A stretch of 64,000 nucleotides of DNA from Dehalococcoidia bacterium (GCA_965217625.1 OZ244557.1:208082-272081); one strand, 5' to 3'. Shown: positions 10,022 to 43,608, counted from the stretch's first letter. Made by a program: numbers and translations. Notes: generated from the letters alone by a model not told the origin.

Positions 10022-11854
10022 ATGCGCGCCTTGTTGACCCACCCGACCACCCGAACTACCCGGACCACCGTGGCCGTCGCCCGCTGGGGCGCCGTCCCGC
10101 TGCTGATCCTGCTGCTGACCCTCACCGCGGCGCTTGCGGCGGCGGCCTGCGGCGGCGGCGATGACGACGCCGACAGCACCGCCCGCGCGACCTCGGCCAC
10201 GCGCGAAGATCGCGACGCCGACGCCGCGGCGGGCGCCCAGGCGGACGACGGCGATGCCGACGCCCAGAGTCAGAGCGAGGACCAGGACCAGAGCCAGCCC
10301 CAGGCCCAGGCCGAGCCGCAGGAGCGCGCGACTCCGGCCAGCGCCGGCCCCGCCGGCAACGACCTGCGCCTCGCCTTCTCCTCGCCGCTCACCCTCGACC
10401 CGGCGCTCACCACCAGCGTCTCCTCGGCCCGCTTCGTGGTCGAGATCTTCGGCGGCCTGCTCAGCCTCAGCCCGGACTTGCAGCTGATCCCCGACCTCGC
10501 CGAGGCGCTGCCCGAGTTCACGCAGAACGACGACGGCACCGTCACCTACACCTTCAACCTGCGCCGCGACGCCCTCTTCCACAACGGCCGCCGCGTCCAG
10601 GCCGACGACGTCAAGTGGAGCATCGAGCGCCACGCCGCGCCCGAGACCTTCTCCCCCGTCGCGCCCGACTTCCTCAACGACATCATCGGCGCCGTCGACT
10701 ACATGCGCGGCCGCGCCGACGAGATCAGCGGCATCGAGGTGATCGACGACACCACCATCCAGATCACGATCGACTCGCCCAAGCCGTACTTCCTCTTCAA
10801 GCTCACCTACCCCACCGCCTTCGTCGTCGACCGCCAGCAGGTCGAGAACGACCCCCGCAACTGGGCCTCCAGCCCCAACGGCACCGGCCCCTTCGAGCTG
10901 GCCGAGTGGAACCTGGGCGAGGGGCTGATCCTCGAGCGCTGGGACCGCTACCACCTCGAGCCCGCGCTGGTCGACCGCGTGATCGTGCGCTTCGCCGGCG
11001 GCGGCCTCACCCAGTACGAGAACAACGAGGTCGATATCGCCGACATCGGCACCAACGACATCGAGCGCGCCCGCGACCCCAGCTCGGACCTCAACGCCGA
11101 GTTCGTCAGCCGCAACGAGCTGTCCGTCTTCTACATCGGCTTCAACACCCAGCAGCCGCCGTTCGACGACCGCGACGTGCGCCGCGCCCTGGCCATGGCG
11201 ATCGACAAGCAGACCATCGCCGAGGTCGTGCTGCAGTCCATCGCGCCCGTCGCGCACGGCATCATCCCGCCCGGGCTGGCCGCCTTCGACGAGAACTTCG
11301 GCGGCCTGCCCTTCGACCCCGAACGCGCCAAGGAGCTGCTCGACGCCTCCTCGTACGCCGGCACGCCCTTCCTCGACAACATCCGCATCACCGTCCCCGG
11401 CGCCGGCGCGACGCCCGGCAACGTCATCGTCGCCATCCAGGACATGTGGAGCACGAACCTGGGCCTGCAGGTCGAGATCCAGCAGGTCGAGGCGGCCAAC
11501 TTCTTCTCCGAACTCGACCAGGGGCTCTACCAGGCCTTCAGCCTGGGCTGGATCCTCGACTACCCGGACCCGGAGAACATCGTCGACCTGCTCTTCCACT
11601 CCGCCTCGCTGCAGAACAACCCCGCCTACCAGAGCGATGAACTGGACGCCCTCGTCGAGGAGGCGCGCGGCGAACTCGACGCCGACCGCCGCATCGAGCT
11701 CTACCGCGAGGCCGAGCGCGTGATCATCGAGGACGCGCCCTGGGCGCCGCTGTTCTTCGGCACCGCCAACCAGGTCATCAAGCCCTATGTGACCGGCTAC
11801 GTGCCGCCGCGCTCGATCATTCCGCACCTGCGCTACATCGGTCTCGAGCAGTAG
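10022..11854 (+). CDS. ABC transporter substrate-binding lipoprotein, family 5 (peptide/nickel/opine type)
   Basis: Lipoprotein signal with Cys (LLTLTAALAAAACGGG), followed by an acidic low-complexity linker and an SBP_bac_5-like body. Confidence 0.85.
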   Translation: MRALLTHPTTRTTRTTVAVARWGAVPLLILLLTLTAALAAAACGGGDDDADSTARATSATREDRDADAAAGAQADDGDADAQSQSEDQDQSQPQAQAEPQERATPASAGPAGNDLRLAFSSPLTLDPALTTSVSSARFVVEIFGGLLSLSPDLQLIPDLAEALPEFTQNDDGTVTYTFNLRRDALFHNGRRVQADDVKWSIERHAAPETFSPVAPDFLNDIIGAVDYMRGRADEISGIEVIDDTTIQITIDSPKPYFLFKLTYPTAFVVDRQQVENDPRNWASSPNGTGPFELAEWNLGEGLILERWDRYHLEPALVDRVIVRFAGGGLTQYENNEVDIADIGTNDIERARDPSSDLNAEFVSRNELSVFYIGFNTQQPPFDDRDVRRALAMAIDKQTIAEVVLQSIAPVAHGIIPPGLAAFDENFGGLPFDPERAKELLDASSYAGTPFLDNIRITVPGAGATPGNVIVAIQDMWSTNLGLQVEIQQVEAANFFSELDQGLYQAFSLGWILDYPDPENIVDLLFHSASLQNNPAYQSDELDALVEEARGELDADRRIELYREAERVIIEDAPWAPLFFGTANQVIKPYVTGYVPPRSIIPHLRYIGLEQ

Positions 11855-11922
11855 CGCCGCCGTCCGGCGGGCGCCCCGCGCGCCCGCCGGGCCCACCACG
11901 CGGCCGGGGGAGGGGACGGCGC

Positions 11923-14238: not shown

Positions 14239-15681
14239 ATGAAAGTCACCAGCGAACGCATCCCCGAGTCCCAGATCGTCCTCGAGATCGAGCTCGACGA
14301 TGAGCGCGTGACCAAGTCGCTCAATCAGGCCGCGCGGCGGCTGGCGCAGCGCTACCGCATCCCCGGCTTCCGCAAGGGCAAGGCCCCCCGCGTCGTCATC
14401 GAGCAGACGCTCGGCGCCGACGCCGTCTTCGAAGAGGCCATCGACCGCATGATCCCCGAGGCCTACGAGTGGGCCGTCAAGGACCAGGGCATCGCGCCCA
14501 TCGGCCCGCCCGAGGTCGAATCCATCGACCGCGACCCCGTCCGCATCCGCGCGCGGGTGCCCATGCCCCCCGAGATCGACCTCGGCCCCTACCGGGAGAT
14601 CGCGCTGGTCGAGGAGCCCGTCAGCGTCACCGAGGAGGACGTCGAGAACGCCATCCTCGAAGTGCGCCGCCAGCACGCCATCATCGAGCCCGTCGACCGC
14701 CCCGCCGAACTCAACGACCGCATCAAGGCCGACATTCACGCCACGATCGACGGGCAGCAGGTCCTCGACCAGAGCGACGCCGAGTTCCACCTGCGCGAGG
14801 GCATGGTGATCGGCATCCCCGGCGTCGTCGATGAGATGGTCGGCCTGCCCGTCGGCGAGCACCGCTTTAGCGTGGACGCCGCCGACGACTGGGACGACGA
14901 GGACGTCGCCGGCCGCACCACCGTCTTCACCGTCAATATCAAGGAGATCAAGCAGGAGATCCTGCCCGACGCCGACGACGCCCTCGCCAGCGAGGCGGGC
15001 GACTTCGAGACCTTCGCCGGCCTGCGCTACCGCCTGGAGGAAGATCTGCGCAACGGCGCGGAAAAGCGCACGCGCGCGGCGCACCACGCCGCGCTGATGG
15101 AGGCCGTCATCGGCGGCGCCTCCATCGAGTTCCCACCCCTGCTCGTCCAGCACCAGATGAATCTCATGCTGCAGGAGATCGCCCAGAGCACCGGCCAGGA
15201 TCCGCAGGAGTTTCTGCGCGCCCAGGACGAGCGCGCCCAGCAGATGCGCGAGCACCTGCGCGACGAGGCCGGCGATCGCGTGCGCAGCAGCCTCGTCCTG
15301 GAGCACCTTGCCGAGGCCGAGTCGATCGAGGTCACCGACGCCGACGTCGACGCCGAGATCGCCCGCGTCGCCGGCGACGGCCCCCAGGCCGAGCAGGTCC
15401 GCGAGATGCTCGACACCCCCGACGGCCGCGCCGTGATGCGCCGCAATCTGACCAACACCCGCCTCATGGACCGCCTCAGCGAGATCGCGCGCGACAACGT
15501 CGTCGCCCCGGAGGCGGACGCCGAAGACGCCGAAGCCACCGAGGACGTTGCAGCCGCCGACGAGGTTGAAGCCGCGGAATCGGCCGAAGCCACCGAAGAG
15601 GCCGACGCCGCCGAATCCACCGAAGACCCCGCCTCTGCGACGCAGGCCGCAGAAGCGCCCACTAGCGCCAGCGCCGAGTAA
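14239..15681 (+). CDS. tig: Trigger factor, with an acidic Ala/Glu-rich C-terminal tail
   Basis: MKVTSERIPESQIVLEIELDDERV...GFRKGKAP is a canonical trigger factor N-terminus. Length is 480 aa. Confidence 0.95.
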   Translation: MKVTSERIPESQIVLEIELDDERVTKSLNQAARRLAQRYRIPGFRKGKAPRVVIEQTLGADAVFEEAIDRMIPEAYEWAVKDQGIAPIGPPEVESIDRDPVRIRARVPMPPEIDLGPYREIALVEEPVSVTEEDVENAILEVRRQHAIIEPVDRPAELNDRIKADIHATIDGQQVLDQSDAEFHLREGMVIGIPGVVDEMVGLPVGEHRFSVDAADDWDDEDVAGRTTVFTVNIKEIKQEILPDADDALASEAGDFETFAGLRYRLEEDLRNGAEKRTRAAHHAALMEAVIGGASIEFPPLLVQHQMNLMLQEIAQSTGQDPQEFLRAQDERAQQMREHLRDEAGDRVRSSLVLEHLAEAESIEVTDADVDAEIARVAGDGPQAEQVREMLDTPDGRAVMRRNLTNTRLMDRLSEIARDNVVAPEADAEDAEATEDVAAADEVEAAESAEATEEADAAESTEDPASATQAAEAPTSASAE

Positions 15682-25771: not shown

Positions 25772-26947
25772 TTGCGCGAATGGGGAAGTCCCGTGATCGC
25801 CACGACCGCCCTGGAGCGACGCCCCCATGGCCGCCGGGTCGCGTGCCCGGAGGGGTACCGCGCCTACGTCCCCGCCCCGCTCCCCCCGCCCCTCGCCTGG
25901 GACGGGGGGCTCATCGCCGCGCTGTCCGACGCCGACCGCACGGTCGGCGCCCTCGCCGGCGAGGGCCGCCGCCTGCCCAACCCCCACCTCCTGATCCGTC
26001 CCTTCGTGCGCCAGGAGGCGGTCCTGTCGAGTCGGATCGAGGGGACGCAGGCGACGCTCGGGGAGTTGCTGATCGCCGAGGCGGCCGCGCCGTATCACGC
26101 CGGGCCCGACGACGTCCATGAAGTCGCCAACTACGTGACCGCCCTGGAGTACGGCCTCCACCGCCTCGAGGCGCTGCCCCTGTCGCTGCGCCTCGTGCGC
26201 GAGCTGCACGACCGCCTCATGCGCGGCGTCCGTGGCGATGTCGCCGCGCCCGGGGAGTTCCGTCGCAGCCAGAACTGGATCGGGCGTCCCGGCTGCACGC
26301 TGAACGATGCGTCCTTCGTCCCGCCGCCGCCGGTGGAGCTGATGCCCTGCCTCGGCGCCTGGGAGCGCTACCTGCACGACGACGCGCTGCCGCCGCTGGT
26401 GCACGCGGGGCTGACCCACGCCCAGTTCGAGGCCATCCACCCTTTCCTCGACGGCAACGGCCGCGTGGGGCGTCTGCTGATCACGCTGCTGCTCGTCGAG
26501 CGGGACGTTCTCCCGTCGCCGCTGCTCTACCTCAGCGCCTACTTCGAGGCCACGCGCGACGAGTACTACGCGCGCCTCCTTGGCGTCACCGAGCGCGGCG
26601 AGTGGGAGGAGTGGCTGACCTACTTCCTGCGCGGCGTCGCGCTGCAGGCGCAGGACGCGCTGGACCGCATCCGCCGCATCGACGACCTGCTCGCCGGATG
26701 GAAGCAAGAGCTGCCCCCCGGCCGCTCCCGCGTCCCCCACCGCGCCCTCGACCTCTTCGCCGAGAACCCCTTCTGGACCGTGGCCGGCCTGGCCGGGCGT
26801 CTCGGCGTCGCTTTCACCACCGCCCAGCGCGCCATCGACCGCCTGGAGGCGGCGGGCGTCGTCGCCCGCGTCGGCGAGGCGCGTCGCAACCGTCTCTACT
26901 GCGCCGGCACCCTCCTCCGCGCGCTGGAGGAGCCGGTCGCCGGGTGA
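25772..26947 (+). CDS. fic: Fic-family protein, class II. It has an N-terminal Fic_N with the inhibitory motif SxxxEG, the HPFxDGNGRxGR active site and a C-terminal winged helix.
   Basis: HPFLDGNGRVGRLL is the Fic motif. VLSSRIEGT is the cis inhibitory helix. The annotated start is TTG at 25772; a GTG at 25793 is an alternative. Confidence 0.85.
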   Translation: MREWGSPVIATTALERRPHGRRVACPEGYRAYVPAPLPPPLAWDGGLIAALSDADRTVGALAGEGRRLPNPHLLIRPFVRQEAVLSSRIEGTQATLGELLIAEAAAPYHAGPDDVHEVANYVTALEYGLHRLEALPLSLRLVRELHDRLMRGVRGDVAAPGEFRRSQNWIGRPGCTLNDASFVPPPPVELMPCLGAWERYLHDDALPPLVHAGLTHAQFEAIHPFLDGNGRVGRLLITLLLVERDVLPSPLLYLSAYFEATRDEYYARLLGVTERGEWEEWLTYFLRGVALQAQDALDRIRRIDDLLAGWKQELPPGRSRVPHRALDLFAENPFWTVAGLAGRLGVAFTTAQRAIDRLEAAGVVARVGEARRNRLYCAGTLLRALEEPVAG

Positions 26948-26966
26948 GCGCCCCCCTCAAACCAAA

Positions 26967-26997
26967 ACGAGCCGCTCTCGACGGGAGAGCGGCTCGT
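26967..26997 (+). terminator. Perfect 13-bp hairpin (ACGAGCCGCTCTC-gacgg-GAGAGCGGCTCGT) 20 nt after the fic stop
   Basis: Inverted repeat read directly. No T tract, so it may be a factor-dependent or bidirectional terminator, or a protein-binding site. Confidence 0.4.
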
Positions 26998-27177
26998 AAT
27001 GGTCAGGAGGGCGGCGGGACCGGTCGGCGTTCCCGCGGCGCGGGGCCGCGGGGTGGCGGGCGGGGTGACGGTACTGCCCGGTCCCGTCTGCGATGGCCCT
27101 CCTGCGAGGCGAAACGCCATCCCCCGGCGCGCGGTTCCCCTCGCCCCGACGCCCCAGGTACAAAGCGACATAACATG

Positions 27178-27585
27178 TCACACAGGCGTGGCCGGCGGCG
27201 TGATCACCTCGCAGGCCGGGCCGTTGGAGCGGCTGAGCCGTCGGTCCAGCGTCAGCAGCGGGCAATCGAGCGCCTCGGCCAGCGCCACGTACCAGGCGTC
27301 GTAGATCGTCAGGGCGCCACGCAGGGCCCATACCCGCTCGGCGTAGGGGGTGAACGGAAACAGCGTCAGCGGCAGTTGCATCAGCTCGCGCTGCGCGCGC
27401 GTGGCCTCGCTGGGCGTGATCTGCCGGGCCAACTCCATGCGGCGCAGGGTGTTGCTCGCCTCGGCCAGCGCCAACTCCGGGCCCGCGATCCTGTCCATGG
27501 CGATCCGTGATCGCGCCCACCGGCCATCGCGCCCGGAATCGACCAGGGTGGCGATCAGCAGCGACGCGTCGGCCACCACTCTCAC
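27178..27585 (-). CDS. vapC: VapC-family PIN-domain toxin
   Basis: MRVVADASLLIATLVD... matches the PIN acidic-residue pattern. It overlaps the upstream antitoxin gene by 4 nt. Confidence 0.8.
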   Translation of the reverse strand: MRVVADASLLIATLVDSGRDGRWARSRIAMDRIAGPELALAEASNTLRRMELARQITPSEATRAQRELMQLPLTLFPFTPYAERVWALRGALTIYDAWYVALAEALDCPLLTLDRRLSRSNGPACEVITPPATPV

Positions 27586-27818: not shown

Positions 27819-28018
27819 GCATGCAGAATCGCAGCAATGACATCGATCCGCAAGCGCGACCCCCCTCGCCGGCCGAGGCGGTCGGGACGGCGGCCGCCCG
27901 AACGTGCCATAATCACCGCACGCGTCGGCGGCGTACGACTCCCCGGCATCCGCGACCGACTGGCCGCGGGCCCCCACCCGGGGGCGCAGCGACCGCCGCC
28001 CGGAGAGGTGGGCGACAG

Positions 28019-29539
28019 ATGTCCTCCGTACTGCGTGGCCTGACTGGATCGACACTCCTGCTGCTCCTCATCGCCGGCGCGATGCTCCTGACCACCGCCC
28101 AGGGCGCCGCGCAGGACCTCGACGAAGACGACGAGCCCGCCCCGCCGCCGATCCCCATCACCGGCGACGAACTCCGCAACCTCAGCTACCCCAACGAGTG
28201 GCCGGCCGACGGCGTCGCCCCCCTGACCGATGGCGTCTACACCGAGCCCATCCCCGATTCCGTCGCCCAGGTGCGCGTCGAGTTCCGGCGCGCCGCCTTC
28301 GGCGAGATCGACGGGCGGGCCGCGGCCGCCGTCGTCCTCGCGAGCAGCGGCGGCGGCACCGGGACCTTCTACGAGCTGCACGCCGTCACCCGCGATGAGG
28401 ACGGCGACCCCCGGTCCGTCGCGCGCCACCTCCTCGGCGACCGCATCGGCCTGCAGGGCCTCACCTTCGACGGCGATGTGGTCCGTGTCGACTTCATCGG
28501 CTTCGCCCCCGGCGACGGGGCCTGCTGCCCCACCCTCGCCGTGACCCAAGACTTCGGCCTCCGCGACGGCGAGTTGGTGTTCCTGCACGGGGCCGAATCG
28601 CCGGTCTGGCTGCCCCTCGCCCAGGGCTCCAGCTTCGTCTCCTGGTTCCGCGGGCCCACGACCTCGCGCGCCATCCTGGCCTCGGCCGGGTTGCTCGACC
28701 GCGTCTGGGTGCTCGACTCCAGCGACGGCAGATGGGTCCTCGACGCCCGCCATCCCGCCCCTGGCGCGGGCGCCCCGATCCTGGTCGAGCAGGGCAGCCA
28801 CCTCGTCCTCGTGGCCCGCGCCGCGACGAACGTGCCCGTGCTGCTGCTCCGCGCGCCCGACGCCTGCCCGCTCAACCCCGGGCCCCCCAACCCCGTCGAC
28901 CCCTCGATGATCGTCTACGGCCCGGGCAACGGTGAGACCTTCGCCGGCTCGGTGGCCGTCTCGGGCCTGGCCCGCGCCTTCGAGGCCAACGTCCGCCTGC
29001 GCGTCCTCGACGCCGGCGGCGCCGTCCTCGCCGACACCCACACCACCGCCGAGGTCGGCGGGCCCTACTTCGGCGCGTTCTCCGCCGACATCCCCGTCGA
29101 CGTCGCCGAGGAGACCGAGGCCTGCGTCCAGATCTTCGAGCAGTCCGCCCGCGACGGCCTCGACGTCAACGTCGTCCAGATCGGCGTCACCCTGCTGCCC
29201 GCCCTGCCCGCCGACTTCCCCGCCGCGCTGCTCTACCCCGGCGCCACGGTCGTCTCCGACAGCCGCTCCAGCAACGACGAGGGCGAGACCTTCGTCACCG
29301 CCCACCTGGCCGTCGACGCCGGCGCCGCCGACATCCTCGCGTTCTACGAGAGCGCCTTCGCCGCCCTCGACGCCCCCGGCCAGGTTTTCGATGGCTATAC
29401 GGGGCCCAACGACACCCCCGTCGTCTACCTCGCCCTGCAGGATGTCTCCTACGCCGCCCAAGCCATCATCCGCGAAGGCGCCGCCCCCGGCGGCGCCACC
29501 CTCGTCGAGGTGACGATCAACCTGGATCCGCCGGGCTAG
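28019..29539 (+). CDS. Secreted hypothetical protein with a C-terminal Gmad2-like Ig-like domain
   Basis: Signal peptide MSSVLRGLTGSTLLLLLIAGAMLLTTAQGAAQD. The C-terminal segment IVYGPGNGETFAGSVAVSGLARAFEANVRLRVLDAGGAVLADTHTTAEVGGPYFGAFSADIPV resembles the Gmad2 immunoglobulin-like domain. Confidence 0.5.
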   Translation: MSSVLRGLTGSTLLLLLIAGAMLLTTAQGAAQDLDEDDEPAPPPIPITGDELRNLSYPNEWPADGVAPLTDGVYTEPIPDSVAQVRVEFRRAAFGEIDGRAAAAVVLASSGGGTGTFYELHAVTRDEDGDPRSVARHLLGDRIGLQGLTFDGDVVRVDFIGFAPGDGACCPTLAVTQDFGLRDGELVFLHGAESPVWLPLAQGSSFVSWFRGPTTSRAILASAGLLDRVWVLDSSDGRWVLDARHPAPGAGAPILVEQGSHLVLVARAATNVPVLLLRAPDACPLNPGPPNPVDPSMIVYGPGNGETFAGSVAVSGLARAFEANVRLRVLDAGGAVLADTHTTAEVGGPYFGAFSADIPVDVAEETEACVQIFEQSARDGLDVNVVQIGVTLLPALPADFPAALLYPGATVVSDSRSSNDEGETFVTAHLAVDAGAADILAFYESAFAALDAPGQVFDGYTGPNDTPVVYLALQDVSYAAQAIIREGAAPGGATLVEVTINLDPPG

Positions 29540-29553
29540 CCCCGGCGTCGGTG

Positions 29554-29643
29554 TGGCGGAGGGGGAGGGATTCGAACCCCCGAGACGCTTGCGCGCCTAG
29601 CGGTTTTCAAGACCGCCGCCTTCAACCACTCGGCCACCCCTCC
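29554..29643 (-). tRNA. tRNA-Ser (anticodon TGA), 90 nt with a long variable arm
   Basis: The reverse complement gives GGAGGGGTGGCCGAGTGGTTGAAGGCGGCGGTCTTGAAAACCGC...GGGGGTTCGAATCCCTCCCCCTCCGCCA. The anticodon loop is CT-TGA-AA, the acceptor stem is 7 bp with a G discriminator, the T-loop is TTCGAAT and a CCA end is encoded. Confidence 0.9.
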
Positions 29644-29682
29644 GCGACCGTCGTTGCCGGCCCCCTCAGCCTACCCCGGCCG
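29624..29682. repeat. Left copy of a 59-bp imperfect direct repeat (54/59 identical to 33273-33331). It covers the first 20 nt of the tRNA-Ser 5' end plus upstream flank.
   Basis: AACCACTCGGCCACCCCTCCGCGACCGTCG(T/C)TG(CC/TT)GGCCCC(CT/AC)CAGCCTACCCCGGCCG read at both sites. Confidence 0.8.
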
Positions 29683-32600
29683 CGCCAAGATTCCCTGCCA
29701 ATCGGCGCTCTTATGAACGACCTCCTGTCTACGGAGGTCGATATGCTGGTCTTCGTGGGCGACCAAATCGAATGACGCCCGTTCCCACCGAATCACTGCG
29801 GGGGATGTGGGCAGGACACGGCGCTGCGACGGAGGCAAGCCATCTTCGACCGGCTTCATGGGGCCATCGAGCGAGCCATTCAAGAACCGCTGAACGGGCG
29901 GCTGTTCGAGCGGTGCGCGGTGGATCTCTTGCGCCAGAACTACTACCCGAAGCTGCGTCCCACCCCGGACGGATACGACACCGGCATAGATGGGATCGCT
30001 GGCCCGGATGCGGATCCGGAGTTCGTCCTGGTGGCCACGGTCGCGCAGGATCCCGCGCGCAATCTGAGGGGGAGCGTCAAGCGCCACGTAGATGCCGGTG
30101 GCCCGGGCCGGACCGTCGTATTCGCCACGTCGCAAGCGATCACCGTCGCGCGGCGGCGGCGGCTGGAAGAGGAGTTGAAGGACAAATTCGGGGCTCGGCT
30201 CCTCGCAGTGCATGACTGCGGTGACTTCGTCTGGATGCTCTACGACCACCCCCAGTGGCGGAAGGATCTGCTCGGTGTCGCGGGCGCAGCAAAGGCGCTT
30301 AGTCGATTCCCCGCCAACTCGCGGCCGACGCCTGCGGTCCCCTTGATCGGGCGCGATGCAGATCTCGAGCGACTGCAAGCCGTGACCGGCGATCTCCTAG
30401 TGGTGGGTAAGCCCGGCGTCGGCAAGACGTTCCTGCTGGAACAACTGGCGTCCGAGGGCTGGGGTCTCTTCGATGCGGGATGGGCCATCGACAAGCTTGA
30501 GGACGCCGTCCGGGAGATGAAGCCGCGGCGGGTCGTGGTCGACGACGCACATTTGAAGGGGGAGGACCGCATCCCCCAAGTCGTGAGGCTGCGTCGGGAG
30601 ATGAACGTCGACTTCGACATCGTGGGCGTCTCGTGGCCGGGCCAAGCTGACACCGTGTCGGGGCAGTTGCCCGAGGCGACGCGCTTCGACGTTGAAGAGC
30701 TGGAGCGTGACCAGATCGTCGAAGTGATTGAGCAAGCGGGCATTGGGGGCCCGCCGGAATTGCAGCGCACCATCGTCGATCAGGCCCGCGGCTGCGTGGG
30801 GCTGGCGGTCACACTCGCCCGCGCCTGCGTCGCGGGCAGGGTCCATGAAGTTGCGACGGGCGAAGCGCTCGTCGACGATCTCGTCCGATGGTATGAGCGA
30901 AGGCTGGGTTCAGAGAGTCGTCACATGCTCGGAGTGCTGGCGCTCGCGGGTGACGGCGGCGTGACCCTTGGGCAGGCTCGCGAGATCCTGGGCCTCACCG
31001 TACCTCAGAGCAGCAGCCTCATCCGCGGTCTGGCTTCGGGCGGCACCATTGATGAGGTTCCGTACCGCGCGCCGCGGATGCGGGTGCAGCCCGAAGCACT
31101 GCGCTATGCGCTGGTGCGAGACGTGTTCTTCGGCGGGCTCGGATCGCTGGATGCTGCCAGTGCCATCGATGGCCTCGACCCTCCTTCGGTTGCTGCGATC
31201 CCGCTCATCGGGGCGTCGCATCGTGGCGCGGATGTTGACCGCGGGCTGTTGCAGTCGATTGTTGATTGGAGCGATAAGAGAACTGCCGTGGAATACGCAT
31301 GTCTCGGCCCGGGTGAGTTCCAGACGGCGCTTGAGCAAGCGCCGACGCACCGCACGCCAGTCGCCGAGGCCGCGCTCAAGTTTGGAATCGATACCCGACG
31401 CGCGCTCCAGGTTCTCATGGGACAGGCTGTGGGTGATGATCGCTCCGAGCACAACACGCCCGAACACCCTCTCCGCATCGTCGGTGACCACCTCGCACGG
31501 AGAGAGACGCCATTCGAGGCGAGAAGGCTCGCCGTGGAGGTTGCGGACTCGTGGTTCAAGGAGGGAGGCGACGGCGAGGTCGGGGTCCGCGTGCTGATGC
31601 ACGCCGTGCGGTTGGAGCTGCACGGTGCGGTGCAGGATCCGGGGGTCGGGGACACACTCCGGATATACCGGGGGATGGTGCCCAAGCCGTGGATCGACGA
31701 GCTCTCGCGCCTCTGGGATTCGATCCTCGACATCTTCGATCGCGAGCCCAACCTGCTTCCCGCCCCTCTCCTGGACGCATTGCATCCTTGGGTTCAACCA
31801 AACACGGTTGTCCTCGGACGGGGGCTGGACGACGAGGCTTTCGTTGAGATCCGAAGAATCGCCGCCCGCGTAGTAGCGCGGCTGGCGGAGATATTCGGAG
31901 ATCGCCCAGGTGTGCTGCGCTCCCTGAATGAGCATGTGGAGCGTGGGAATATCCCGGTCCCGATCGAGTTGCCGGACTACTTCACAGTGCTTTTCCCGAA
32001 ACGCTGGGACGGTTCTGACGACGACGACGGGCTAGACGGGTGGCAGCGTCGGGCCGACGCGGGGGTGCGGCGCTTAGCGGAACAACTGCGCAAAGAGTCT
32101 ACCGACGACATCGCGGCGTTCATCGTAGGCGCAGACTCTCAGGCCGCCACGGCCGGAATCACGTACCCGCGTCACACGCCTCATCTCGCCAGAAGGCTCG
32201 CCGCAGACTCGGACTCGCCCGAAGCGTTGCTCGCCGCCCTGGAAGCGAGCACGGCGGCCCCTGACATCCTCCTGCCGCTCCTCGACCGCGTTGCTGAACT
32301 CCAGCGTCCGGGTTGGGAAGCAACCCTCGAACGTCTGCTCGCTGAGGATCGGGCGGCTTGGGTGCCTATCCAGGTCGCACTGACCCGCCCCTGCGACAAC
32401 CGGCTCAAACAGCTGGCGATCAAGCAGACTGGACCCTGGCTCAGTCTCATTGACAACCTCGTGATCATGGACCAGATCGAGCACGCGACGCTCGCGCTCC
32501 TCTTCGACGCGCCTGACGCCAGCGTTCGGAAACAAGCAGCGACGACGATAGGAAGCGTGGATTCTGGGTGCCGGCTCGAGAGCCTGTCTCCCTCCATGCT

Positions 32601-33272
32601 CTCGCGCTGGCGACAGATCATCGTGGACAGTCCCGCAGGCGACTACTGGTTCTCCGAAATCCTCAAGCACGACGATGAACTCTGCGCCGACTGGCTCCGG
32701 GCCTGGTTCAAGCGGTACGCCCAGGGCGAGTACGCATTCCTCCCGCGAGAAGTCAGCGCGGTGATCGCCAGCTTGCCCGCGGACGTCCGGGTCACGCTCA
32801 TCGGAGACGTGCCCGCCGACGCGCCACTGTCGCTGCTGCAGGACGCAGTCCGGAGTCTCGTGTCCCATGACCTTGACGTGATGATGGCTCTCTTTGACCG
32901 ACCCGAACTTGAGTGGCTGCATAGCGTCGCATTGCGGGGTGGGCCCAGCGAGGTCTGGATGGACCGCGCGCTAGCAGCTCTGGATCGCGGGTGGGAACCA
33001 GAGCGGATCGTCTCGGCAACGGAGTTCTCCGAAGCAGCATGGTTCGGTGAGGAGAGCCAGCATTGGCAGGGAAAGATTGACTCCTTCGCAGGTTTTCGTC
33101 AGAAGATGGGGGAGCCCCTCGATGCGCGGCAGGAGCGGATCATCGCGGCGGGAGTCGCCTACTTCGAGCGACACCGCGACGAAGCCGCTAAGCGTGAACA
33201 CCGCGAGCGTGTGTTCGGTCGGGGATCGTAGCAAGCAACGATGTCGAGGCCGGACTACTACCTAGCGTCCCC
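29644..33272. mobile_element. Roughly 3.6-kb low-GC genomic island inserted next to tRNA-Ser. It is bounded by att-like direct repeats and carries one giant ORF. No integrase is present.
   Basis: GC falls to about 60% against about 72% around it. The direct repeats duplicate the tRNA 5' end and the 3' end of the neighbouring phosphohexomutase gene. Confidence 0.5.
29920..33231 (+). CDS. Large island-encoded protein (at least 1103 aa) with an N-terminal Mrr-like (PD-(D/E)xK) restriction-endonuclease-like domain, a P-loop NTPase and a helical C-terminal region of about 800 aa. It is a candidate Avs/STAND-like defence protein. The true start is probably upstream, since the frame is open from 29776.
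   Basis: Mrr_cat-like FERCAVDLLRQNYYPKL...DTGIDGI. Walker A LLVVGKPGVGKTFLLEQLA. Walker B RRVVVDDAHL. The open frame continues upstream through ...AIFDRLHGAIERAIQEPLNGRL before reaching a TGA at 29773-29775. Confidence 0.6.
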   Translation: MDLLRQNYYPKLRPTPDGYDTGIDGIAGPDADPEFVLVATVAQDPARNLRGSVKRHVDAGGPGRTVVFATSQAITVARRRRLEEELKDKFGARLLAVHDCGDFVWMLYDHPQWRKDLLGVAGAAKALSRFPANSRPTPAVPLIGRDADLERLQAVTGDLLVVGKPGVGKTFLLEQLASEGWGLFDAGWAIDKLEDAVREMKPRRVVVDDAHLKGEDRIPQVVRLRREMNVDFDIVGVSWPGQADTVSGQLPEATRFDVEELERDQIVEVIEQAGIGGPPELQRTIVDQARGCVGLAVTLARACVAGRVHEVATGEALVDDLVRWYERRLGSESRHMLGVLALAGDGGVTLGQAREILGLTVPQSSSLIRGLASGGTIDEVPYRAPRMRVQPEALRYALVRDVFFGGLGSLDAASAIDGLDPPSVAAIPLIGASHRGADVDRGLLQSIVDWSDKRTAVEYACLGPGEFQTALEQAPTHRTPVAEAALKFGIDTRRALQVLMGQAVGDDRSEHNTPEHPLRIVGDHLARRETPFEARRLAVEVADSWFKEGGDGEVGVRVLMHAVRLELHGAVQDPGVGDTLRIYRGMVPKPWIDELSRLWDSILDIFDREPNLLPAPLLDALHPWVQPNTVVLGRGLDDEAFVEIRRIAARVVARLAEIFGDRPGVLRSLNEHVERGNIPVPIELPDYFTVLFPKRWDGSDDDDGLDGWQRRADAGVRRLAEQLRKESTDDIAAFIVGADSQAATAGITYPRHTPHLARRLAADSDSPEALLAALEASTAAPDILLPLLDRVAELQRPGWEATLERLLAEDRAAWVPIQVALTRPCDNRLKQLAIKQTGPWLSLIDNLVIMDQIEHATLALLFDAPDASVRKQAATTIGSVDSGCRLESLSPSMLSRWRQIIVDSPAGDYWFSEILKHDDELCADWLRAWFKRYAQGEYAFLPREVSAVIASLPADVRVTLIGDVPADAPLSLLQDAVRSLVSHDLDVMMALFDRPELEWLHSVALRGGPSEVWMDRALAALDRGWEPERIVSATEFSEAAWFGEESQHWQGKIDSFAGFRQKMGEPLDARQERIIAAGVAYFERHRDEAAKREHRERVFGRGS

Positions 33273-33331
33273 AACCACTCGGCCACCCCTCCGCGACCGT
33301 CGCTGTTGGCCCCACCAGCCTACCCCGGCCG
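33273..33331. repeat. Right copy of the 59-bp direct repeat (attR-like). It overlaps the last 4 codons and the stop of the phosphohexomutase gene (33320-33331).
   Basis: See 29624-29682. Confidence 0.8.
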
Positions 33332-34732
33332 ACGCAGATCCGGCGGCAGCGACGCCACGCCCGACGCTCGCAGGGCCTCCGAGACCCGTTCGGCGATGAC
33401 CTTGTACGCCTCGCGGCTCTCGGCCTCCAGGCGGAGGCTGAGCACGGGCTCGGTGTTCGATGCGCGCACCAGCGCCCAGCCGCCGTCGAACTCGATGCGC
33501 GCCCCGTCGATCTCCAGCACCGGCTGCGACGCCCGGAAGCGCGCCGCGCACTCCTCGGCGATGCGGAACTTCGCGGCGTCGTCGCAGGGGATGCGCAGCT
33601 CCGGCGACGTCACGAGCGCCGGCCCCGGCCCCCCCGCCCCGGCCATCAGCGCCGACAGCGGTCGCCCCCGCGCCGACACCAGCTGCGCGATGAGGCAGGC
33701 CCCGAAGATCGCATCGTCGAAGCCGAAGTAGTCCTCGCGGAAGTAGAAGTGCGACGAGGCCTCGCCGCCCAGCAGGATGCCGGCCTCGCGCATCAGCCGC
33801 TTCGCCGGCGAGTGCCCCGTGGGGCCGAACACCGGCCGCCCGCCGTGCGCCTCAATGGCCCGGATGGTCGCCAGCGACACCTTCACGTCGACCAGCACGC
33901 GCGCCCCCGGATGGCGCGACAGCAGGTCCCAGGCCAGCAGCGACAGGATGGCGTCGGGGTCGTGGCGGCGGCCCGTTTCATCGACGACCCCCAGGCGGTC
34001 GCCGTCGCCGTCCCACGCGACGCCCATGTCGGCCCTCTGCGCGACCACCGCCGCGCGCATCCCCTCCATCGACGCCGGCAGTTGCGGGTCGGCGGGCGCG
34101 TCCGACCCCCCGGCGTCCGGCTCCAGGCGGAGCCCCACGACGTCGCAGCCCGCCCGCTCGAGCGCGGCCGGGCCGGCGATCGCCGTCACGCCGTGGCCCG
34201 CGTCGGCCACGACCCGCAGCGGCCGTCGCAGCGCGAAGCGCTCGCCCAGATAAGCGACGTACTCGGGCAGCGCGTCCCGCTCCTCGAACGCCCCCGCCCC
34301 CTGCTCGAAGTCGTCCGCCTCGATCAGTGCCCGCAGCCCCTGGATCGCCGACGCCGACAGCGGGATGCCCTCCGACTCGAGCAGCTTCAGCCCGTTGACC
34401 TCGGGCCCGCCGTGGCTGCCGGTCACGTTGCAGCCCCCGGCCATCCCCCAGCGCGCCGCCGCGAAGTACAGCAGCGGCGACGGCGACAGCCCGATCCCCA
34501 CCACGTCCACGCCCGACGCGCGCGCCCCCTCGACGAACCCCCGCAGCAGCTCCTCCGACGACGGCCGGTTGTCGCGCCCCACGACGATCGTCGCCGCCCC
34601 GCCGGCGCGCCGCAGGTGCGTCGCGTACGCCCGGCCGATCAGCCGCGCCGCGTCGGGCGTCAGCTCCGTGTCCGCGCGGCCGCGGATGTCGTAGGCGCGG
34701 AAGATGCGGGGCTCCACGGTCGTGCCGCTCAT
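33320..34732 (-). CDS. Phosphomannomutase/phosphoglucomutase (alpha-D-phosphohexomutase family)
   Basis: Active-site TGSHGGPEVNGLKL and a four-domain PGM/PMM architecture. 470 aa. Confidence 0.9.
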   Translation of the reverse strand: MSGTTVEPRIFRAYDIRGRADTELTPDAARLIGRAYATHLRRAGGAATIVVGRDNRPSSEELLRGFVEGARASGVDVVGIGLSPSPLLYFAAARWGMAGGCNVTGSHGGPEVNGLKLLESEGIPLSASAIQGLRALIEADDFEQGAGAFEERDALPEYVAYLGERFALRRPLRVVADAGHGVTAIAGPAALERAGCDVVGLRLEPDAGGSDAPADPQLPASMEGMRAAVVAQRADMGVAWDGDGDRLGVVDETGRRHDPDAILSLLAWDLLSRHPGARVLVDVKVSLATIRAIEAHGGRPVFGPTGHSPAKRLMREAGILLGGEASSHFYFREDYFGFDDAIFGACLIAQLVSARGRPLSALMAGAGGPGPALVTSPELRIPCDDAAKFRIAEECAARFRASQPVLEIDGARIEFDGGWALVRASNTEPVLSLRLEAESREAYKVIAERVSEALRASGVASLPPDLRRPG

Positions 34733-35498: not shown

Positions 35499-36929
35499 CT
35501 ACGCGCCGGCGCGGAACAGCGCGTTGGCCGACTCGGCCAGGGCCATGCGGTCGGTGACGGGCGGGCCCGCGACGGGCGGGTCCGCGTCGGGCCAGTAGCC
35601 CTCGGGCACGGTCCAGAAGCGCAGGACGCGCAGCCGTGGGTCGCCGGTCTCCGTGAGCCGCCGCCCGGCCTCGATGATCGCCTCGCCGAGCACCGTCTGC
35701 TTGAAGATCCAGTCGTTCAGCGCCCGGTGCGACGGCGCCTGCCCCGTCGCCAGCGCGCCCGGCTGCGCGACCACCGCCTCCTGGTAGTACGAGCGCAGGT
35801 CCTGCGCGACGTGGCGCAGCAGGTACGGCATCGGGTGGCCCCAGGCGACGCCGGCGCCCGCGTCGGGCACGCGGTCCAGCGCCGCGCCCTCGGCGACGGC
35901 GGCCAGCACCGCGGCCAGGGTCTCGGCGTGCGCCGGCACGTCGTCGCCGGCGACCGGGCCGCTGCCGCCCACGACGCTGCGGCCGCGGGCGCGGTGCGTC
36001 TCGCGCCACCAGGGCGCCAGGCCCTGGACCTCGGCCCGCAGCCGGCCGGCCAGCGTGTCGCTCTCGGGCGGCGCGAACGCGACGGGGCAGGCCCACGTAT
36101 CGGAGAACGACGCCGCCGGCGCGTCGATGGGGTAGTCGACGATGCCGTGCTCGCTCAGCGTCGGCAGCAGGTCGAGCGCCGCCCGCAGCACGTCGCGCTG
36201 GAAGCCGGGGTCGTCCGGCACGCCGAACGGGCGGCCCAGGTAGAACGACACCCACAGCGCCCGCGGCGGGTTCATCACCTCGCTGTGCTCGCGGATAAGC
36301 GAGATGCTGGTCGTCGCGACGCCCTCCCGCTCGATGAAGTGCGCCAGCGCACCCACGGTGCGCGTGCAGGCCGGTCAAACGGGCGCCAGCACCACGGCGT
36401 CGACGCCGTCCCGCTTGAGCAGCCGGCCCACCTCGCGCGCCGCCGGCTCGAGCCGCTCGGGCCGTGGCACGCCGCCCATGAACGAGTAGTGCCAGCGCGC
36501 CACCGCGCCGATCTCGCCCGCCGCGGCCAGCTCGCGCAGCCGCTCCAGCGGCAGCACGACGTTGGCGTCCTGCTCGAGCGCCGAGCGGTCCCAGTTCACG
36601 CTCACGTGCGAGCTGACCAGGTCGGCGAGGTCGACATCGCCGGGGATCAGGCGGTAGTCGATCGCGCCGGCGGCGAAGCGCGCGTCGTCGCGGCGGTGCA
36701 GCCCCGCCGTCGTGATCAGCGCGATGGTCGACTCGGCCAGCGGCTTGGGCGTGATCCAGTCGCCGGGCGCAATGCGGGTGGGCGGCATATCGCGCATGTG
36801 CTCGGCCTCTTCGGGGTGCAGATCGGACAGGCGGACCATGTGTGCTCCTCGCTGCCGCGGGCGCTCGGCCCGCGGCCGGTCCAGCATCGCACGCCCGGGC
36901 GGCCGGTTGTCAACCCGACCGCGTACCAT
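35499..36929 (-). CDS. Selenoprotein B homolog (glycine/sarcosine/betaine/D-proline reductase GrdB/PrdB family) with an in-frame TGA codon at 36375-36377. Predicted selenocysteine in the motif VVLAPV-U-PACTRT.
   Basis: Track ORFs 36375..36929 and 35499..36356 are in the same frame, separated only by TGA plus 6 codons. The joined sequence ...RLRELAAAGEIGAVARWHYSFMGG...GVDAVVLAPV[U]PACTRTVGALAHFIEREG aligns to the PrdB/GrdB Sec region (..GVDAVILTAG-U-GTCHR/CTRC..). A hairpin GCGCAC-cgugg-GUGCGC begins 12 nt after the UGA. Confidence 0.65.
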
Positions 36930-37088
36930 GCGTCCTCATGGGGATGAACGCCAGGCTCACTTCCGCCGCCGAGGCCTACTTCGAGGAACTTCGCCGCGTG
37001 CGCGCGTCGGGCGGCGCGACGGCGGAACGCTCCCGCTACCACAGTCGTGGAGTTCCTCACAGCCACAGTTCCGGCGGGCGAGAGAGCG

Positions 37089-37304
37089 CTAGTCCTCCTC
37101 GATCTCCCATGCGCCGAATGCAGCCACCTCGACCGAGCCCGTAGCGTCGAGACGGAAGACGTCGTCTTCGTCGGAGGAGAGGGCCCGGGCAGCCTCAATG
37201 CGCTCCTCGTCTGTGGCGTAGGGGCCGTGCAGTTCGGGCTCGACGCTTCCCCAGACATACAGTAGGTAGCGTTGCGTAACCTCGCCGTTCGCCTCTGTGG
37301 CCAT
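37089..37304 (-). CDS. Small acidic hypothetical protein (71 aa)
   Basis: Strong RBS (AAGGAG) 10 nt upstream of the ATG at 37304. Sits in a low-GC region immediately downstream of the 37322-38209 gene. The upstream extension of the track ORF is junk. Confidence 0.4.
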   Translation of the reverse strand: MATEANGEVTQRYLLYVWGSVEPELHGPYATDEERIEAARALSSDEDDVFRLDATGSVEVAAFGAWEIEED

Positions 37305-37321
37305 CCTGCTCTCCTTCCTCT

Positions 37322-38209
37322 TTACGCCGGAATCCGCTGATGCCAGCGGAACACGTCTGCGTTGGTCATGAAGCCGCACAGCTTGTCGAGGCCGCTCGCC
37401 TGGAACGTCGGACGACGGAGATTCCTCGCGAACACGCTGCGCCTCATCTCGTCGGCCACGATGGTGAACCTTGGCGGCTCTGTGAGGGACAGATGGACGT
37501 CGTTCATCCGCAACAGCCCAGAGTAGATTGGCGTCGAGTGTTCGACCTCGTACAGGCTGACTGGAGTGTTGGCGCCCCGCGCCATCCACACTACGTCGAT
37601 CTCACGCACCACGGAGTCGAGGCCCGGCGGCATCGTTGTCCGGAACGGAAACCGTGGCACAAGACTCCAGTCCATCTTCTGGCGATCGTTCGGTGGAACC
37701 CACACGTCGAGGCCCCGGGCATCGCCGATCGCACCCAGTAGCGTCTGCACTTGTGAGTGATCGAGAGCCGGCGCCTCGTCTCGGGCGTCTGCCAGTGCGC
37801 CGAGCAGCGCCTCCCAGCCGAAGTACGCCTCGACATTGTGACGTCCGGCTCGCGCGATGTAGAACTCGGTGGGTTGGCTGTCGTGGATGTAGACCTGCGC
37901 CTTGACTTGGCCGTCGGCAGCCGGTCCAGCTTCGTCGAAGAGCTCGCCGAAGTGAGCCAGCGGGAGCAGCAACGGCTCAACCTGTCCGTCCCACAGCAGC
38001 GCGATAAACGCCGTCCGCCCATCGAGTTCTCGCAAGTCCTGCTCGCGGAGACCATAGAAGGTGTTGCCCTTTTCGTAGACGCGTGAGTAGCGCACGTACA
38101 CGAGCGTCTGCCCGTCGCCGAGTTCGAACAGCGATCGACTGTTACCCAGTCGCTTCAGCTGCCCCGCTCGTTCGGAGAGCTCCCGCAGAAACGCTTCGCG
38201 TGGCTTCAT
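37322..38209 (-). CDS. Hypothetical protein (295 aa), a possible PD-(D/E)xK-type nuclease (motifs LDVWVP / EIDVVW...YEVEHS)
   Basis: Low-GC (about 60%) gene. The start is placed at MKPREAF. No confident family assignment; the nuclease-like motif is weak. Confidence 0.4.
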   Translation of the reverse strand: MKPREAFLRELSERAGQLKRLGNSRSLFELGDGQTLVYVRYSRVYEKGNTFYGLREQDLRELDGRTAFIALLWDGQVEPLLLPLAHFGELFDEAGPAADGQVKAQVYIHDSQPTEFYIARAGRHNVEAYFGWEALLGALADARDEAPALDHSQVQTLLGAIGDARGLDVWVPPNDRQKMDWSLVPRFPFRTTMPPGLDSVVREIDVVWMARGANTPVSLYEVEHSTPIYSGLLRMNDVHLSLTEPPRFTIVADEMRRSVFARNLRRPTFQASGLDKLCGFMTNADVFRWHQRIPA

Positions 38210-38536
38210 GCTCCTGACGATACCGCGAACCTGCTGCCCAGCGCACGGTCGGCAGCGCGCCGAGATTCTTGTCGACGCGGGTATCGTCAAGATTGCTGAT
38301 CAGTGCAGGCCATGCTCGAAGTGCGAGACGATTCGGTTGCGCATCTTCGGCCCCCGCTCACGGAACACCGGAAAGAGGCTCGACCGCCCCCGACCCCGCC
38401 CCGCTCCCGCGCCACCGCCCGACGCCCGTCGCATCGCGGCGATCGTCGGGCTGGTGGCGTCGGGCTGACCCCCGCCCCGGCTCCGTCGTCGCTCCCACCC
38501 CCGGGCGCGCGATAGACTTGACGAGCGGAGGACGGA

Positions 38537-42615: not shown

Positions 42616-43608
42616 TCAAGCGTCCCCCGTGCGACCGTAGTGCTCGCGGTCCGTGTCGGTCACTCCGTATCCGACACCCAACTCGATCCTCGATGCCACC
42701 GACAACTGCCGAACAGCATCGAGATCCTCGGTGGGAGTGTCACGTGTTTCCCCATACCAGCCCTCGTATAAGTCGCCGATCTCTGCGTTGAGCACCCGAC
42801 TAAGCGCCAGAAAGACCGTAGGGGCGTCATTCGCTATTTCCCGCACCCGGGTGCCCACGGCGCTCGACAGTTCGCCCAACTCGGGCTCCTGGTCAACACG
42901 ACTGACGAACGAATCGAACGTGCGCCAGCCCTCGTTCTGATCCGTTACGGCATGGCGCGCGAGTGCGCCCTGCAAGGAGCCGGTGACTCCGAGACCCCAG
43001 GGCTGCGGCAACAGCTTCCACACTTGGTCTTCGCGTTCGTGCGAGGAGAGCACGATGCCCGGTACGAGTTCGCTTGATCGGAGCGGGTTAGAGCGGCTCC
43101 GCACGGAGTCGAACAACACAGTGTAGCGACAGATATCGTAGAACGCCTCGACTTCACGTTCGGCGAGGAATGAGATCAACTCCTGGGTCGGTTCCACTTG
43201 CGCAATGACGTCGCCGATCGTGCGCAACGTCGCTCCGAGGTCTCCGCAGACGGCGGCCAGTGGAGCGAGGTATGCCGGCACGTATCGGTCAAGGCGGTCT
43301 CTGAACGCCATTGTGATCTTGAACGCTTGCTCTCTTCTCAGCCGCTCAGCCTTGTATGCGTGGTGGAGGCTCGTTCCGACGATCGAGAGCAGCGGCGTGA
43401 GCACACCCGTGACGACCACTGCCTTTGCCGTTTCATGACCCTGGTCTGGGAACAAGAGATCCCATGTGGCGAGGAAGAGAATCGCTACCACGAGCGATGC
43501 CAGCACCGAAAGCGTGATCGGTGCTGCATACGCACTCAGAGTGGAGCGGATTCTCCTCACCGTGTCTCCGGAAGTCCTGCCACTGTTGGGTTGGTGGCCC
43601 CCGACCAA
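42616..43608 (-). CDS. Hypothetical membrane protein (two N-terminal TM helices plus a cytoplasmic domain), low-GC
   Basis: Hydrophobic segments ITLSVLASLVVAILFLATW and AVVVTGVLTPLLSIVGTSL. No family recognised. GC is about 58%. Confidence 0.4.
   Translation of the reverse strand: MVGGHQPNSGRTSGDTVRRIRSTLSAYAAPITLSVLASLVVAILFLATWDLLFPDQGHETAKAVVVTGVLTPLLSIVGTSLHHAYKAERLRREQAFKITMAFRDRLDRYVPAYLAPLAAVCGDLGATLRTIGDVIAQVEPTQELISFLAEREVEAFYDICRYTVLFDSVRSRSNPLRSSELVPGIVLSSHEREDQVWKLLPQPWGLGVTGSLQGALARHAVTDQNEGWRTFDSFVSRVDQEPELGELSSAVGTRVREIANDAPTVFLALSRVLNAEIGDLYEGWYGETRDTPTEDLDAVRQLSVASRIELGVGYGVTDTDREHYGRTGDA

Follow-up and report, generated by a model that had tools for sequence, protein, structure and literature searches.

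Islands that target tRNA genes usually enter the 3′ part of the tRNA: the insert adjoins the gene, a partial tRNA lies at its far end, a block of identity rebuilds the target, the composition of the insert is foreign and relatives carry empty sites. Integration into the 5′-distal part of a tRNA is documented and infrequent (PMC6563490), a rare class that this source, citing Zhao and Williams 2002, credits to those authors. Islands linked to tRNAs, including Ser-tga, have been described together with partial tRNAs and degenerate, integrase-less remnants (10.1101/2020.12.28.424599). Here we describe a one-gene islet beside tRNA-Ser(UGA) in a 64,000-nucleotide stretch of DNA from a Dehalococcoidia bacterium (GCA_965217625.1 OZ244557.1:208082-272081; this whole stretch is hereafter the window, and positions are counted from its first letter).

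The islet is real and fairly ordinary as a gain-and-loss island: a defence islet of a kind already known, flanked by att-like repeats in a tRNA hotspot and without an integrase. Apart from entry into the 3′ part, it shares with tRNA-targeting islands all of the features listed above. Its anatomy is the mirror image of the classical arrangement, as its identity block runs from the D-arm region outward and takes in the tRNA 5′ end, the spacer upstream of it and the last part of the protein-coding gene next to it. It also differs in having no integrase or other mobility gene, a single-gene cargo and variable repeat limits. The closest parallels are cis-mobilizable elements (CIMEs) and the remnants of Prochlorococcus tycheposons, which likewise are att-flanked, lack a recombination module and transfer genes, occupy tRNA-seeded hotspots and bring different small cargos to different genomes; tRNA-Ser(tga) is among the tRNAs of tycheposon islands (10.1101/2020.12.28.424599). 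Unlike in those systems, neither the window nor the surroundings of the islet in the other carriers yielded a helper element with the same att site, tandem accretion was not seen at the locus, the host is a high-GC Dehalococcoidia and the insert is on the tRNA's 5′ side. That side, the persistence of a one-gene cassette across two host clades and an unnamed family of Avs4-like STAND proteins with an apparent ATC or ATT start make the locus modestly unusual. We consider it probable, with real room for doubt, that the islet is a repeat-mediated cassette with an Avs-like cargo, which entered by a past Campbell-type insertion, now has no integrase and turns over through its repeats and flanks.

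The islet and its duplicated junction

The islet lies between an intact tRNA-Ser(UGA) gene (29554-29643, minus strand, anticodon tga; ARAGORN, and Rfam tRNA at 60.2 bits), whose 5′ end at 29643 faces it, and an intact phosphoglucomutase/phosphomannomutase (PGM/PMM, hereafter PGM) gene (33320-34732, minus strand; four Pfam domains, PGM_PMM_I to IV), the right neighbour of the original junction. It is bounded by a direct repeat of 60 nt, identical at 55 of 60 positions, with 3649 nt from start to start. The left, tRNA-side copy (29623-29682) comprises nucleotides 1-21 of the tRNA (29623-29643), which read CAACCACTCGGCCACCCCTCC as the plus strand of the repeat, and the 39 nt upstream, made up of a 26-nt spacer variant (29644-29669) and the 13-nt CCTACCCCGGCCG (29670-29682), a duplicate of one intergenic base and the final 12 nt of PGM. 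The right, PGM-side copy (33272-33331) consists of an orphan 21-nt fragment of the tRNA 5′ end (33272-33292), the native spacer (33293-33318), the intergenic base (33319) and the PGM stop with the last three codons (33320-33331). An earlier note on this DNA had reported a 59-bp repeat at 54/59 identity, which is the same repeat less one base, and had correctly placed its right copy over the 3′ end of PGM. Neither neighbour was damaged by the insert, as the tRNA has a full 5′ end and upstream region and PGM retains its stop codon.

This is the sole outstanding direct repeat within 28.5-34.5 kb. It has E = 1e-17 in a BLAST search of one flank against the other, in which every other match has E ≥ 5e-4. 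Its 31-nt exact core, CAACCACTCGGCCACCCCTCCGCGACCGTCG, occurs at two sites only in the 64-kb window, even when three mismatches are allowed, and two matches were obtained in 0 of 100 shuffles. The five mismatches between the copies are confined to 14 nt of the spacer, and the 21-nt tRNA fragment and the 13-nt PGM tail have 0 mismatches. Two extensions of the repeat were considered and rejected. The 70 nt adjacent to it on each side aligned no better than shuffles (p = 0.94 in the window; p = 0.59 in L081, another carrier of the islet), and a longer PGM-side tRNA remnant with a lost anticodon arm, based on a common CCTAGCG 7-mer, was dropped as not significant (fraction of shuffles ≥ 0.18).

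To find relatives, we searched with the PGM protein, taking one genome per species, which yielded four close relatives (L001-L004), all Dehalococcoidia or Chloroflexota metagenome-assembled genomes, with PGM protein identities to the window of 93, 89, 85 and 82%. The tRNA-Ser of the window is 100% identical over 90 nt in all four, as it is in the carriers L081 and L083. In L001, L002 and L003 the PGM stop lies approximately 30-50 nt from tRNA-Ser(tga) and the junction is uninterrupted; in L004, a 0.9-kb insert separates the two genes. The right repeat copy of the window matches the empty site of L001 at 59 of 60 positions, including all five variable spacer positions, and the left copy carries variant alleles at these five clustered positions relative to both. 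Comparison of these junctions, through the empty sites of L001-L003 and the match of the right copy to that of L001, confirms the original adjacency of tRNA-Ser and PGM before the insertion, as the earlier note had proposed.

The islet is compositionally foreign. Its body (29683-33271) has 64.9% GC, compared with 72.7% and 74.2% in the flanks and 71.0% in the window, and is the 3.6-kb stretch of lowest GC in the window. The drop that had been noted is therefore real, to approximately 65% rather than to approximately 60%. The tetranucleotide distance of the islet from the window average is 0.0306 (mean 0.0184, s.d. 0.0052), approximately 2.3 s.d. above the mean. GC content at third codon positions (GC3) is 0.76 in the islet gene and 0.92-0.97 in neighbouring genes.

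These data bear on the alternative that the gene is native and was never inserted, with the repeat a local duplication of the tRNA leader/PGM terminator region. The same open reading frame (ORF) does occupy this position in several relatives, as that explanation would have it, but its GC content is approximately 65% in the four carriers measured (window, L081, L083 and L082), which is not native. The earlier note had named this ORF at native GC in related genomes as grounds for refutation, and the relatives bear that out in part: they have the ORF, but not the native GC. Clean empty junctions in three relatives across both host clades and the GC3 difference contradict a native origin, and homologues reside in unrelated genomic contexts in other bacteria. 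We regard this explanation as scarcely credible.

The islet measures approximately 3.59 kb between the repeats and 3.71 kb with them, and contains a single ORF and 159 nt (left) and 40 nt (right) of non-coding DNA. The left end (29683-29841, plus strand), which includes the leader of the gene with a GGAGG at 29830-29834, is only approximately 76% identical to that of L081, compared with 90.5% for the gene itself. The right end (33232-33271), from the stop codon of the gene to the right repeat, is almost the same as in the carrier L112 (CAAGCAACGATGTCGAGGCCGGACTACT[A/G]CCTAGCG) and is partly deleted in L081, L083 and L082. Scans for sigma-70 promoters and intrinsic terminators at both junctions found none, and in an Rfam scan of 28.5-34.5 kb the tRNA alone scored above its family gathering score. 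Hallmarks of transposons or insertion sequence (IS) elements are also lacking: there is no transposase domain, the top inverted repeats include no terminal ones, and the duplication is 60 nt long and varies in length between genomes.

A predicted Avs-like STAND NTPase as cargo

The cargo gene (29842-33231, plus strand) would encode 1,129 amino acids from an ATC at 29842 or 1,103 from a GTG at 29920. Nothing of its length is missing and both Walker motifs, A and B, are intact, which does not fit "degraded", one of the two descriptions that the earlier note offered for the islet (degraded or hitchhiking). The reading frame is open from 29776. The family N-terminus has the form MPDxLxxAIE, and its start column holds ATG in more distant homologues and ATC or ATT in the five copies linked to tRNA-Ser (the window and four other carriers, described below). 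A GGAGG precedes the start column in all five of these, with a 7-nt spacer in the window, and four of the copies preserve both the frame and the sequence of the 25 codons after the start column, the exception being L082 with a 1-nt insertion. Because of this GGAGG, the alignment of the start column and the conserved in-frame codons, the gene most likely begins at the non-canonical ATC 29842, with GTG 29920 as the alternative. A start of this kind on an immune gene suggests non-canonical and probably low-efficiency initiation.

Sequence searches gave the cargo no name. Pfam returned only a weak AAA_16 P-loop match, under the cut-off, and NCBIfam nothing; the best PADLOC matches were weak (E = 8e-5 to an REase N-terminal segment, 5e-4 to mad8, and 0.015); and a profile search of the PDB recovered only the P-loop of Clp/Hsp100 proteins. 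An AlphaFold model of the full-length protein, built from 70 homologues, has a predicted local distance difference test (pLDDT) score of 88.3. The PDB entry that it matches best is the complex of Avs3 with phage terminase (8dgc, E = 2.4e-9); next in order come the STAND protein PH0952, CED-4, AVAST5, SAMD9 and a plant resistosome, and the C-terminal half of the model matches HEAT/ARM solenoids such as importin and CAND1. The predicted polypeptide thus has a tripartite architecture, with an N-terminal effector domain, a central STAND NTPase and C-terminal repeats. An Mrr-like nuclease-fold domain (29842-30291) is followed by Walker A (GKPGVGKT, 30406-30429), Walker B (DD, 30541-30546), a winged helix and C-terminal helical repeats. 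The Walker residues G189, G192, G194, K195, T196, D234 and D235 are invariant across the 70 sequences. In the Mrr-like domain, E23, D46 and D50 are conserved; strand β3 has the consensus LVATT without a conserved (D/E/Q)xK lysine, which makes nuclease activity uncertain.

The architecture corresponds to that of Avs4, which combines an Mrr-like nuclease, a STAND NTPase and a repeat sensor. The cargo resembles Avs3 and Avs4 in this tripartite layout, in the whole-chain match to Avs3, in its conserved Walker motifs and in having homologues in defence or mobile neighbourhoods. It is unlike Avs proteins in having no significant match to any PADLOC, Pfam or NCBIfam model, a C-terminal sensor that is HEAT/ARM-like and not clearly TPR, and no conserved canonical catalytic lysine in its nuclease motif. 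Avs proteins oligomerise once a phage protein is recognised (PMC13601566). The fold, the genomic context and this analogy make phage sensing coupled to an N-terminal effector the likely function of the cargo, and the predicted fold agrees with the defence role suggested in the earlier note. The C-terminal helical repeats would bind a phage protein, the STAND NTPase would then oligomerise and the Mrr-like effector would be activated.

The cargo family is large and unnamed. It includes at least 712 cluster representatives (50% identity clusters, E ≤ 1e-30), nearly all of 1,100-1,150 amino acids. The surroundings of homologues include RES, SIR2, SNF2 and AAA_15 genes, a caspase-helicase, type IV secretion system genes, IS elements and toxin-antitoxin pairs, and some homologues are single-gene insertions inside housekeeping operons.

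Carriers, turnover and mode of entry

Close homologues of the cargo protein have 88, 79, 74 and 71% identity, and four other assemblies, which span two host clades and one more distant genome, have the gene at the same site. Three of these (L081, L112 and L083) have the same arrangement as the window, Gmad2 / tRNA-Ser / cargo gene / PGM, in which the left neighbour is a gene with a Pfam Gmad2 domain (27821-29539, plus strand, in the window). In the fourth, L082, the tRNA-Ser and cargo gene are followed by a PGM 3′ remnant of approximately 200 nt and then by RES, SIR2, SNF2 and AAA_15 genes. The one-gene structure is common to all five carriers. Their repeats are not equally preserved: 61 nt at 90% identity with a 27-nt PGM-side tRNA fragment in L112, 60 nt at 92% with 21 nt in the window, and 49 nt at 92% with 7 nt in L081. 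In L083 and L082 the repeat is not significant (p = 0.13 and 0.28, respectively) and there is no PGM-side fragment, and we treat it as eroded.

We defined two host clades from PGM and a second flanking gene. Clade A comprises the window, L001, L081 and L112 (approximately 94%) with L002 (91%), and clade B comprises L003, L004 and L083 (92-93%), with 85-86% between the clades. Carriers and empty genomes are present in both. The identity of the islet gene to that of the window is 90.5% in L081, 82.7% in L112, 78.6% in L083 and 76.5% in L082. Because carriers occur in both clades and islet divergence roughly follows that of the hosts, the islet is, judging by these sequences, old in the lineage and not a recent private acquisition.

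The same divergence would be expected if a larger, integrase-bearing element had inserted once, in an ancestor, at the 5′ part of tRNA-Ser and had since lost everything except the immune gene, leaving an immobile remnant and empty sites that are deletions between the repeats. The stepwise erosion of the repeat in L081, L083 and L082 is consistent with such decay, and islands linked to tRNAs offer well-known examples of degenerate remnants that lack an integrase and include partial tRNAs (10.1101/2020.12.28.424599). Other evidence argues for continuing turnover. None of the five carriers has an integrase fragment or other element gene, and the non-coding DNA on either side of the islet gene amounts to just 159 nt and 40 nt. 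Despite 98% identity in Gmad2, L112 is occupied and L001 empty. The flanks are also mosaic. Gmad2 of the window is 87-88% identical to that of L001, L081 and L112, which are 95-98% identical among themselves, and PGM of the window is approximately 94% identical to PGM of the same three; L081 and L112 are 91.5% identical in PGM and 95% in Gmad2. These different trees for the Gmad2 and PGM flanks point to homologous recombination breakpoints at the locus.

The age of the repeat bears on the same question. The polymorphic spacer positions are shuffled between repeat copies and between genomes. Orthologous spacers of clades A and B are only approximately 75% identical, whereas the two copies in the window are 92% identical and have no mismatch in the tRNA fragment and PGM tail, in which one partner is unconstrained. 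The window repeat thus seems to postdate the divergence of clades A and B and to have been refreshed since then, through re-insertion or gene conversion. We consider an immobile remnant unlikely, although it is the most plausible of the alternatives that we weighed.

The tRNA is a hotspot on both of its sides. In L004, the 0.9-kb insert at the PGM/tRNA-Ser 5′ junction (L004 11414-12318) is different from the islet and is bounded by a repeat of approximately 16 nt, GTAGGCTGRRGGG, around the PGM stop; its 309-amino-acid ORF had no Pfam, NCBIfam or PADLOC match. On the 3′ side, only 14 nt separate the Gmad2 gene from the tRNA in the window, so that this site is empty. The same interval spans 1.4 kb in L001 (11531-12930), 8.4 kb in L002 (11528-19950) and 1.8 kb in L004 (12434-14253). 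The 3′-side inserts of L001 and L004 contain a 320-amino-acid ORF resembling the N-terminus of a type I restriction nuclease (PADLOC REase_I, E = 6e-8), and that of L002 a type IIG restriction-modification enzyme, a histidine kinase and a response regulator; L001 also carries, next to Gmad2, a degenerate duplicate of the tRNA 3′ end. No integrase is encoded in the 5′- or 3′-side inserts of the relatives examined. As relatives hold other small, restriction-type islets on the 3′ side, tRNA-Ser(UGA) is a two-sided defence hotspot.

How the islet entered is best read from the duplicated junction, as the PGM stop, the spacer and the first 21-27 nt of the tRNA are found on both sides of the insert. 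This duplication would be the scar of a Campbell-type insertion, in which circular DNA bearing its own, attP-like copy of the junction crossed over with the chromosome within the tRNA-proximal 31 nt, most likely catalysed by a tyrosine recombinase from outside the present islet. The islet would thereafter have been kept as an integrase-less cassette. Recombination between the two repeats would remove it and restore a perfect empty site. Relatives could acquire it again or exchange it when they recombine homologously across the conserved flanks, or when an excised circle re-inserts through approximately 60 bp of homology. Given that no integrase was found, that the islet is old and that the flank phylogenies are mosaic, present-day gain and loss probably proceed by recombination between the repeats and through the flanks. 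The mechanism of the original integration we infer solely from the anatomy of the locus. Duplication on the 5′ side of a tRNA, which had been called uncommon, is in agreement with the published record (PMC6563490).

Several observations weigh against this account. The analysis revealed neither an integrase or excisionase nor a circular junction or a free element bearing attP, and IMG/VR viral contigs, GenBank phages and PLSDB plasmids contained no cargo homologues. The boundary of the repeat varies by genome (a tRNA fragment of 27, 21, 7 or 0 nt; a PGM tail of 12-16 nt; approximately 16 nt near the PGM stop in L004), a variation more readily explained by decay or by crossovers that homology drives than by a single site-specific crossover at a fixed point. 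The tRNA-side PGM tail matches the PGM end of its own genome (GGCCG in the window, CCGCGACC in L081), which would not be expected of a foreign attP unless the donor was very close or gene conversion had homogenised the copies. A single ancient insertion with repeated deletions, now immobile, also fits, because island divergence tracks the clades (90.5% within clade A, 78.6% between A and B). With regard to the cargo, the defence role is assigned from the fold alone, with no significant family match in PADLOC, Pfam or NCBIfam, and the canonical lysine of Mrr/PD-(D/E)xK nucleases is not conserved.

The catalyst could instead still be at work. The islet might be a hitchhiking, CIME-like or satellite-like cassette with functional attL and attR, excised and integrated by a tyrosine recombinase that acts in trans; the gene for this enzyme would lie at another place in the genome, or belong to a co-resident element with the same junction as its target. 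Such a cassette would explain why the att-like repeats remain 90-92% identical in three clade-A genomes even though one partner of each constrained segment is non-functional; in the window, the 21-nt tRNA fragment and the 13-nt PGM tail are free of mismatches. The identical minimal form in five genomes and the second, unrelated cargo at the L004 site are in keeping with it. Clade-A islet alleles (82.7-90.5%) also diverge more than PGM (91-95%), which suggests exchange, although the Gmad2 range is similar (87.6-98%). However, searches for a recombinase were negative in the window and beside the islet in the other carriers. As the earlier note had observed, the islet has one large gene and no recombinase: neither the cargo nor the rest of the islet has a recombinase domain in Pfam, PADLOC or NCBIfam. 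Ten low-GC3 or unassigned ORFs of the window had none in Pfam, and none was found within 6-10 kb on either side of the islet in L081, L083, L112 and L082. A tandem arrangement with an integrase-bearing element was not seen at the PGM/tRNA-Ser site, and the repeat limits differ among genomes. We think it rather improbable that the islet is mobilised in this way, and less probable than an immobile remnant.

Homologues at other sites and wider meaning

Long repeats flank members of the cargo family at other sites. In L110, a 69-nt direct repeat, 78% identical (5413-5481 and 10709-10777; the same DNA is present in L113, at 9413-9481 and 14709-14777), brackets a 65%-identical cargo homologue and a PhdYeFM/PIN toxin-antitoxin pair, and its left copy overlaps the 3′ end of a gene for an Xer-like tyrosine recombinase outside the bracket. 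This arrangement, with the only recombinase seen near a cargo homologue, speaks for a hitchhiking cassette, but the recombinase gene has a frameshift and a GC content close to native, and perhaps it was just the site of entry. The Xer-like recombinase could be a helper or merely a target gene; as a tblastn query it had no match in the window or in the other cargo-carrying loci. A third repeat copy, as tandem accretion would give, was not found within 10 kb upstream in L110, and no tRNA lies within 10 kb. In L085, a 63-nt direct repeat (5921-5983 and 11845-11907; 73%, E = 9e-8) surrounds a 5.9-kb segment with a cargo homologue. Each copy of the L085 repeat could encode a 19-amino-acid mini-ORF ending in LSF*.

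Repeats of this length in unrelated contexts would also be left by a recombinase-independent insertion that duplicates its target, by staggered breaks, microhomology or template switching, with 50-70 bp repeats at any entry site; the PGM tail of each genome's own in its tRNA-side copy would follow directly. Most other homologue loci have no flanking repeat, however, and this includes a 3718-nt unit that is 99.9% identical between L096 (5688-9405) and L097 (1057-4774) in unrelated flanks. That unit consists of a distant cargo homologue (approximately 31% identical), the 313 nt before it and the 69 nt after it. Neither a target duplication nor clear terminal repeats were seen around the unit, and it is uninformative for the window locus. 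It gives the impression that a single-gene cassette moved recently in a low-GC organism. Moreover, the five clustered mismatches of the window repeat match alleles of other genomes and not random decay, and we know of no bacterial mechanism that yields 60-bp target duplications. A target-duplicating insertion is, in our judgement, very improbable.

Taken together, the repeats at tRNA-Ser/PGM, in L110 and in L085 allow a broader conjecture: a family of minimal recombinase-less cassettes that change chromosomal sites and leave 50-70 bp target-derived repeats, either through a tyrosine recombinase borrowed in trans or by an undescribed mechanism. If this were true, the 5′-tRNA site would exemplify a general system by which immune genes are captured as cassettes. 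We hold it to be doubtful, with only a slim chance of being right. Outside the clade described here, none of 19 metagenome loci had a tRNA near the cargo homologue, and neither did L084-L086 or L110.

Other parts of the window also vary in composition or gene content. A second low-GC stretch (36900-38500, 62-65%) is unlike L001 in length and content; within it, an ORF of 322 amino acids (37322-38290, minus strand) has a weak PADLOC match to a type II restriction enzyme (E = 1.5e-6) and no Pfam match. This stretch is a candidate for a second variable defence islet. Low GC3 (0.72-0.80) is also found in ORFs at 42616-43608 (minus strand), without a family match, and at 60013-61231, and the region from 60 kb includes a small protein with a retroviral-type aspartyl protease domain. 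The largest tetranucleotide outlier of the window is a 968-amino-acid leucine-rich-repeat protein (5834-8740, minus strand); a protein of this type is also found near the cargo homologue in L110. Immediately to the left of Gmad2, the region 25772-27585 holds a Fic/DOC gene (25772-26947) and, on the minus strand, an ORF for a PIN-type toxin (27178-27585), upstream of which is a small partner; these genes are conserved in L081, L083 and L112.

Current ideas are not overturned by this locus, and its value is that of a well-documented instance. It offers a clean comparative case of single immune genes that are kept as gain-and-loss cassettes around a tRNA, with occupied, empty and differently occupied alleles of one junction all on hand, in an uncultured, high-GC lineage of Chloroflexota that has been little studied for mobile DNA. 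It adds to the small set of integrations on the 5′ side of tRNAs and illustrates the persistence and turnover of an islet without an integrase of its own. The Avs4-like architecture of a large unnamed family makes the cargo a candidate for anti-phage testing and a lead to a new family of STAND defence proteins.

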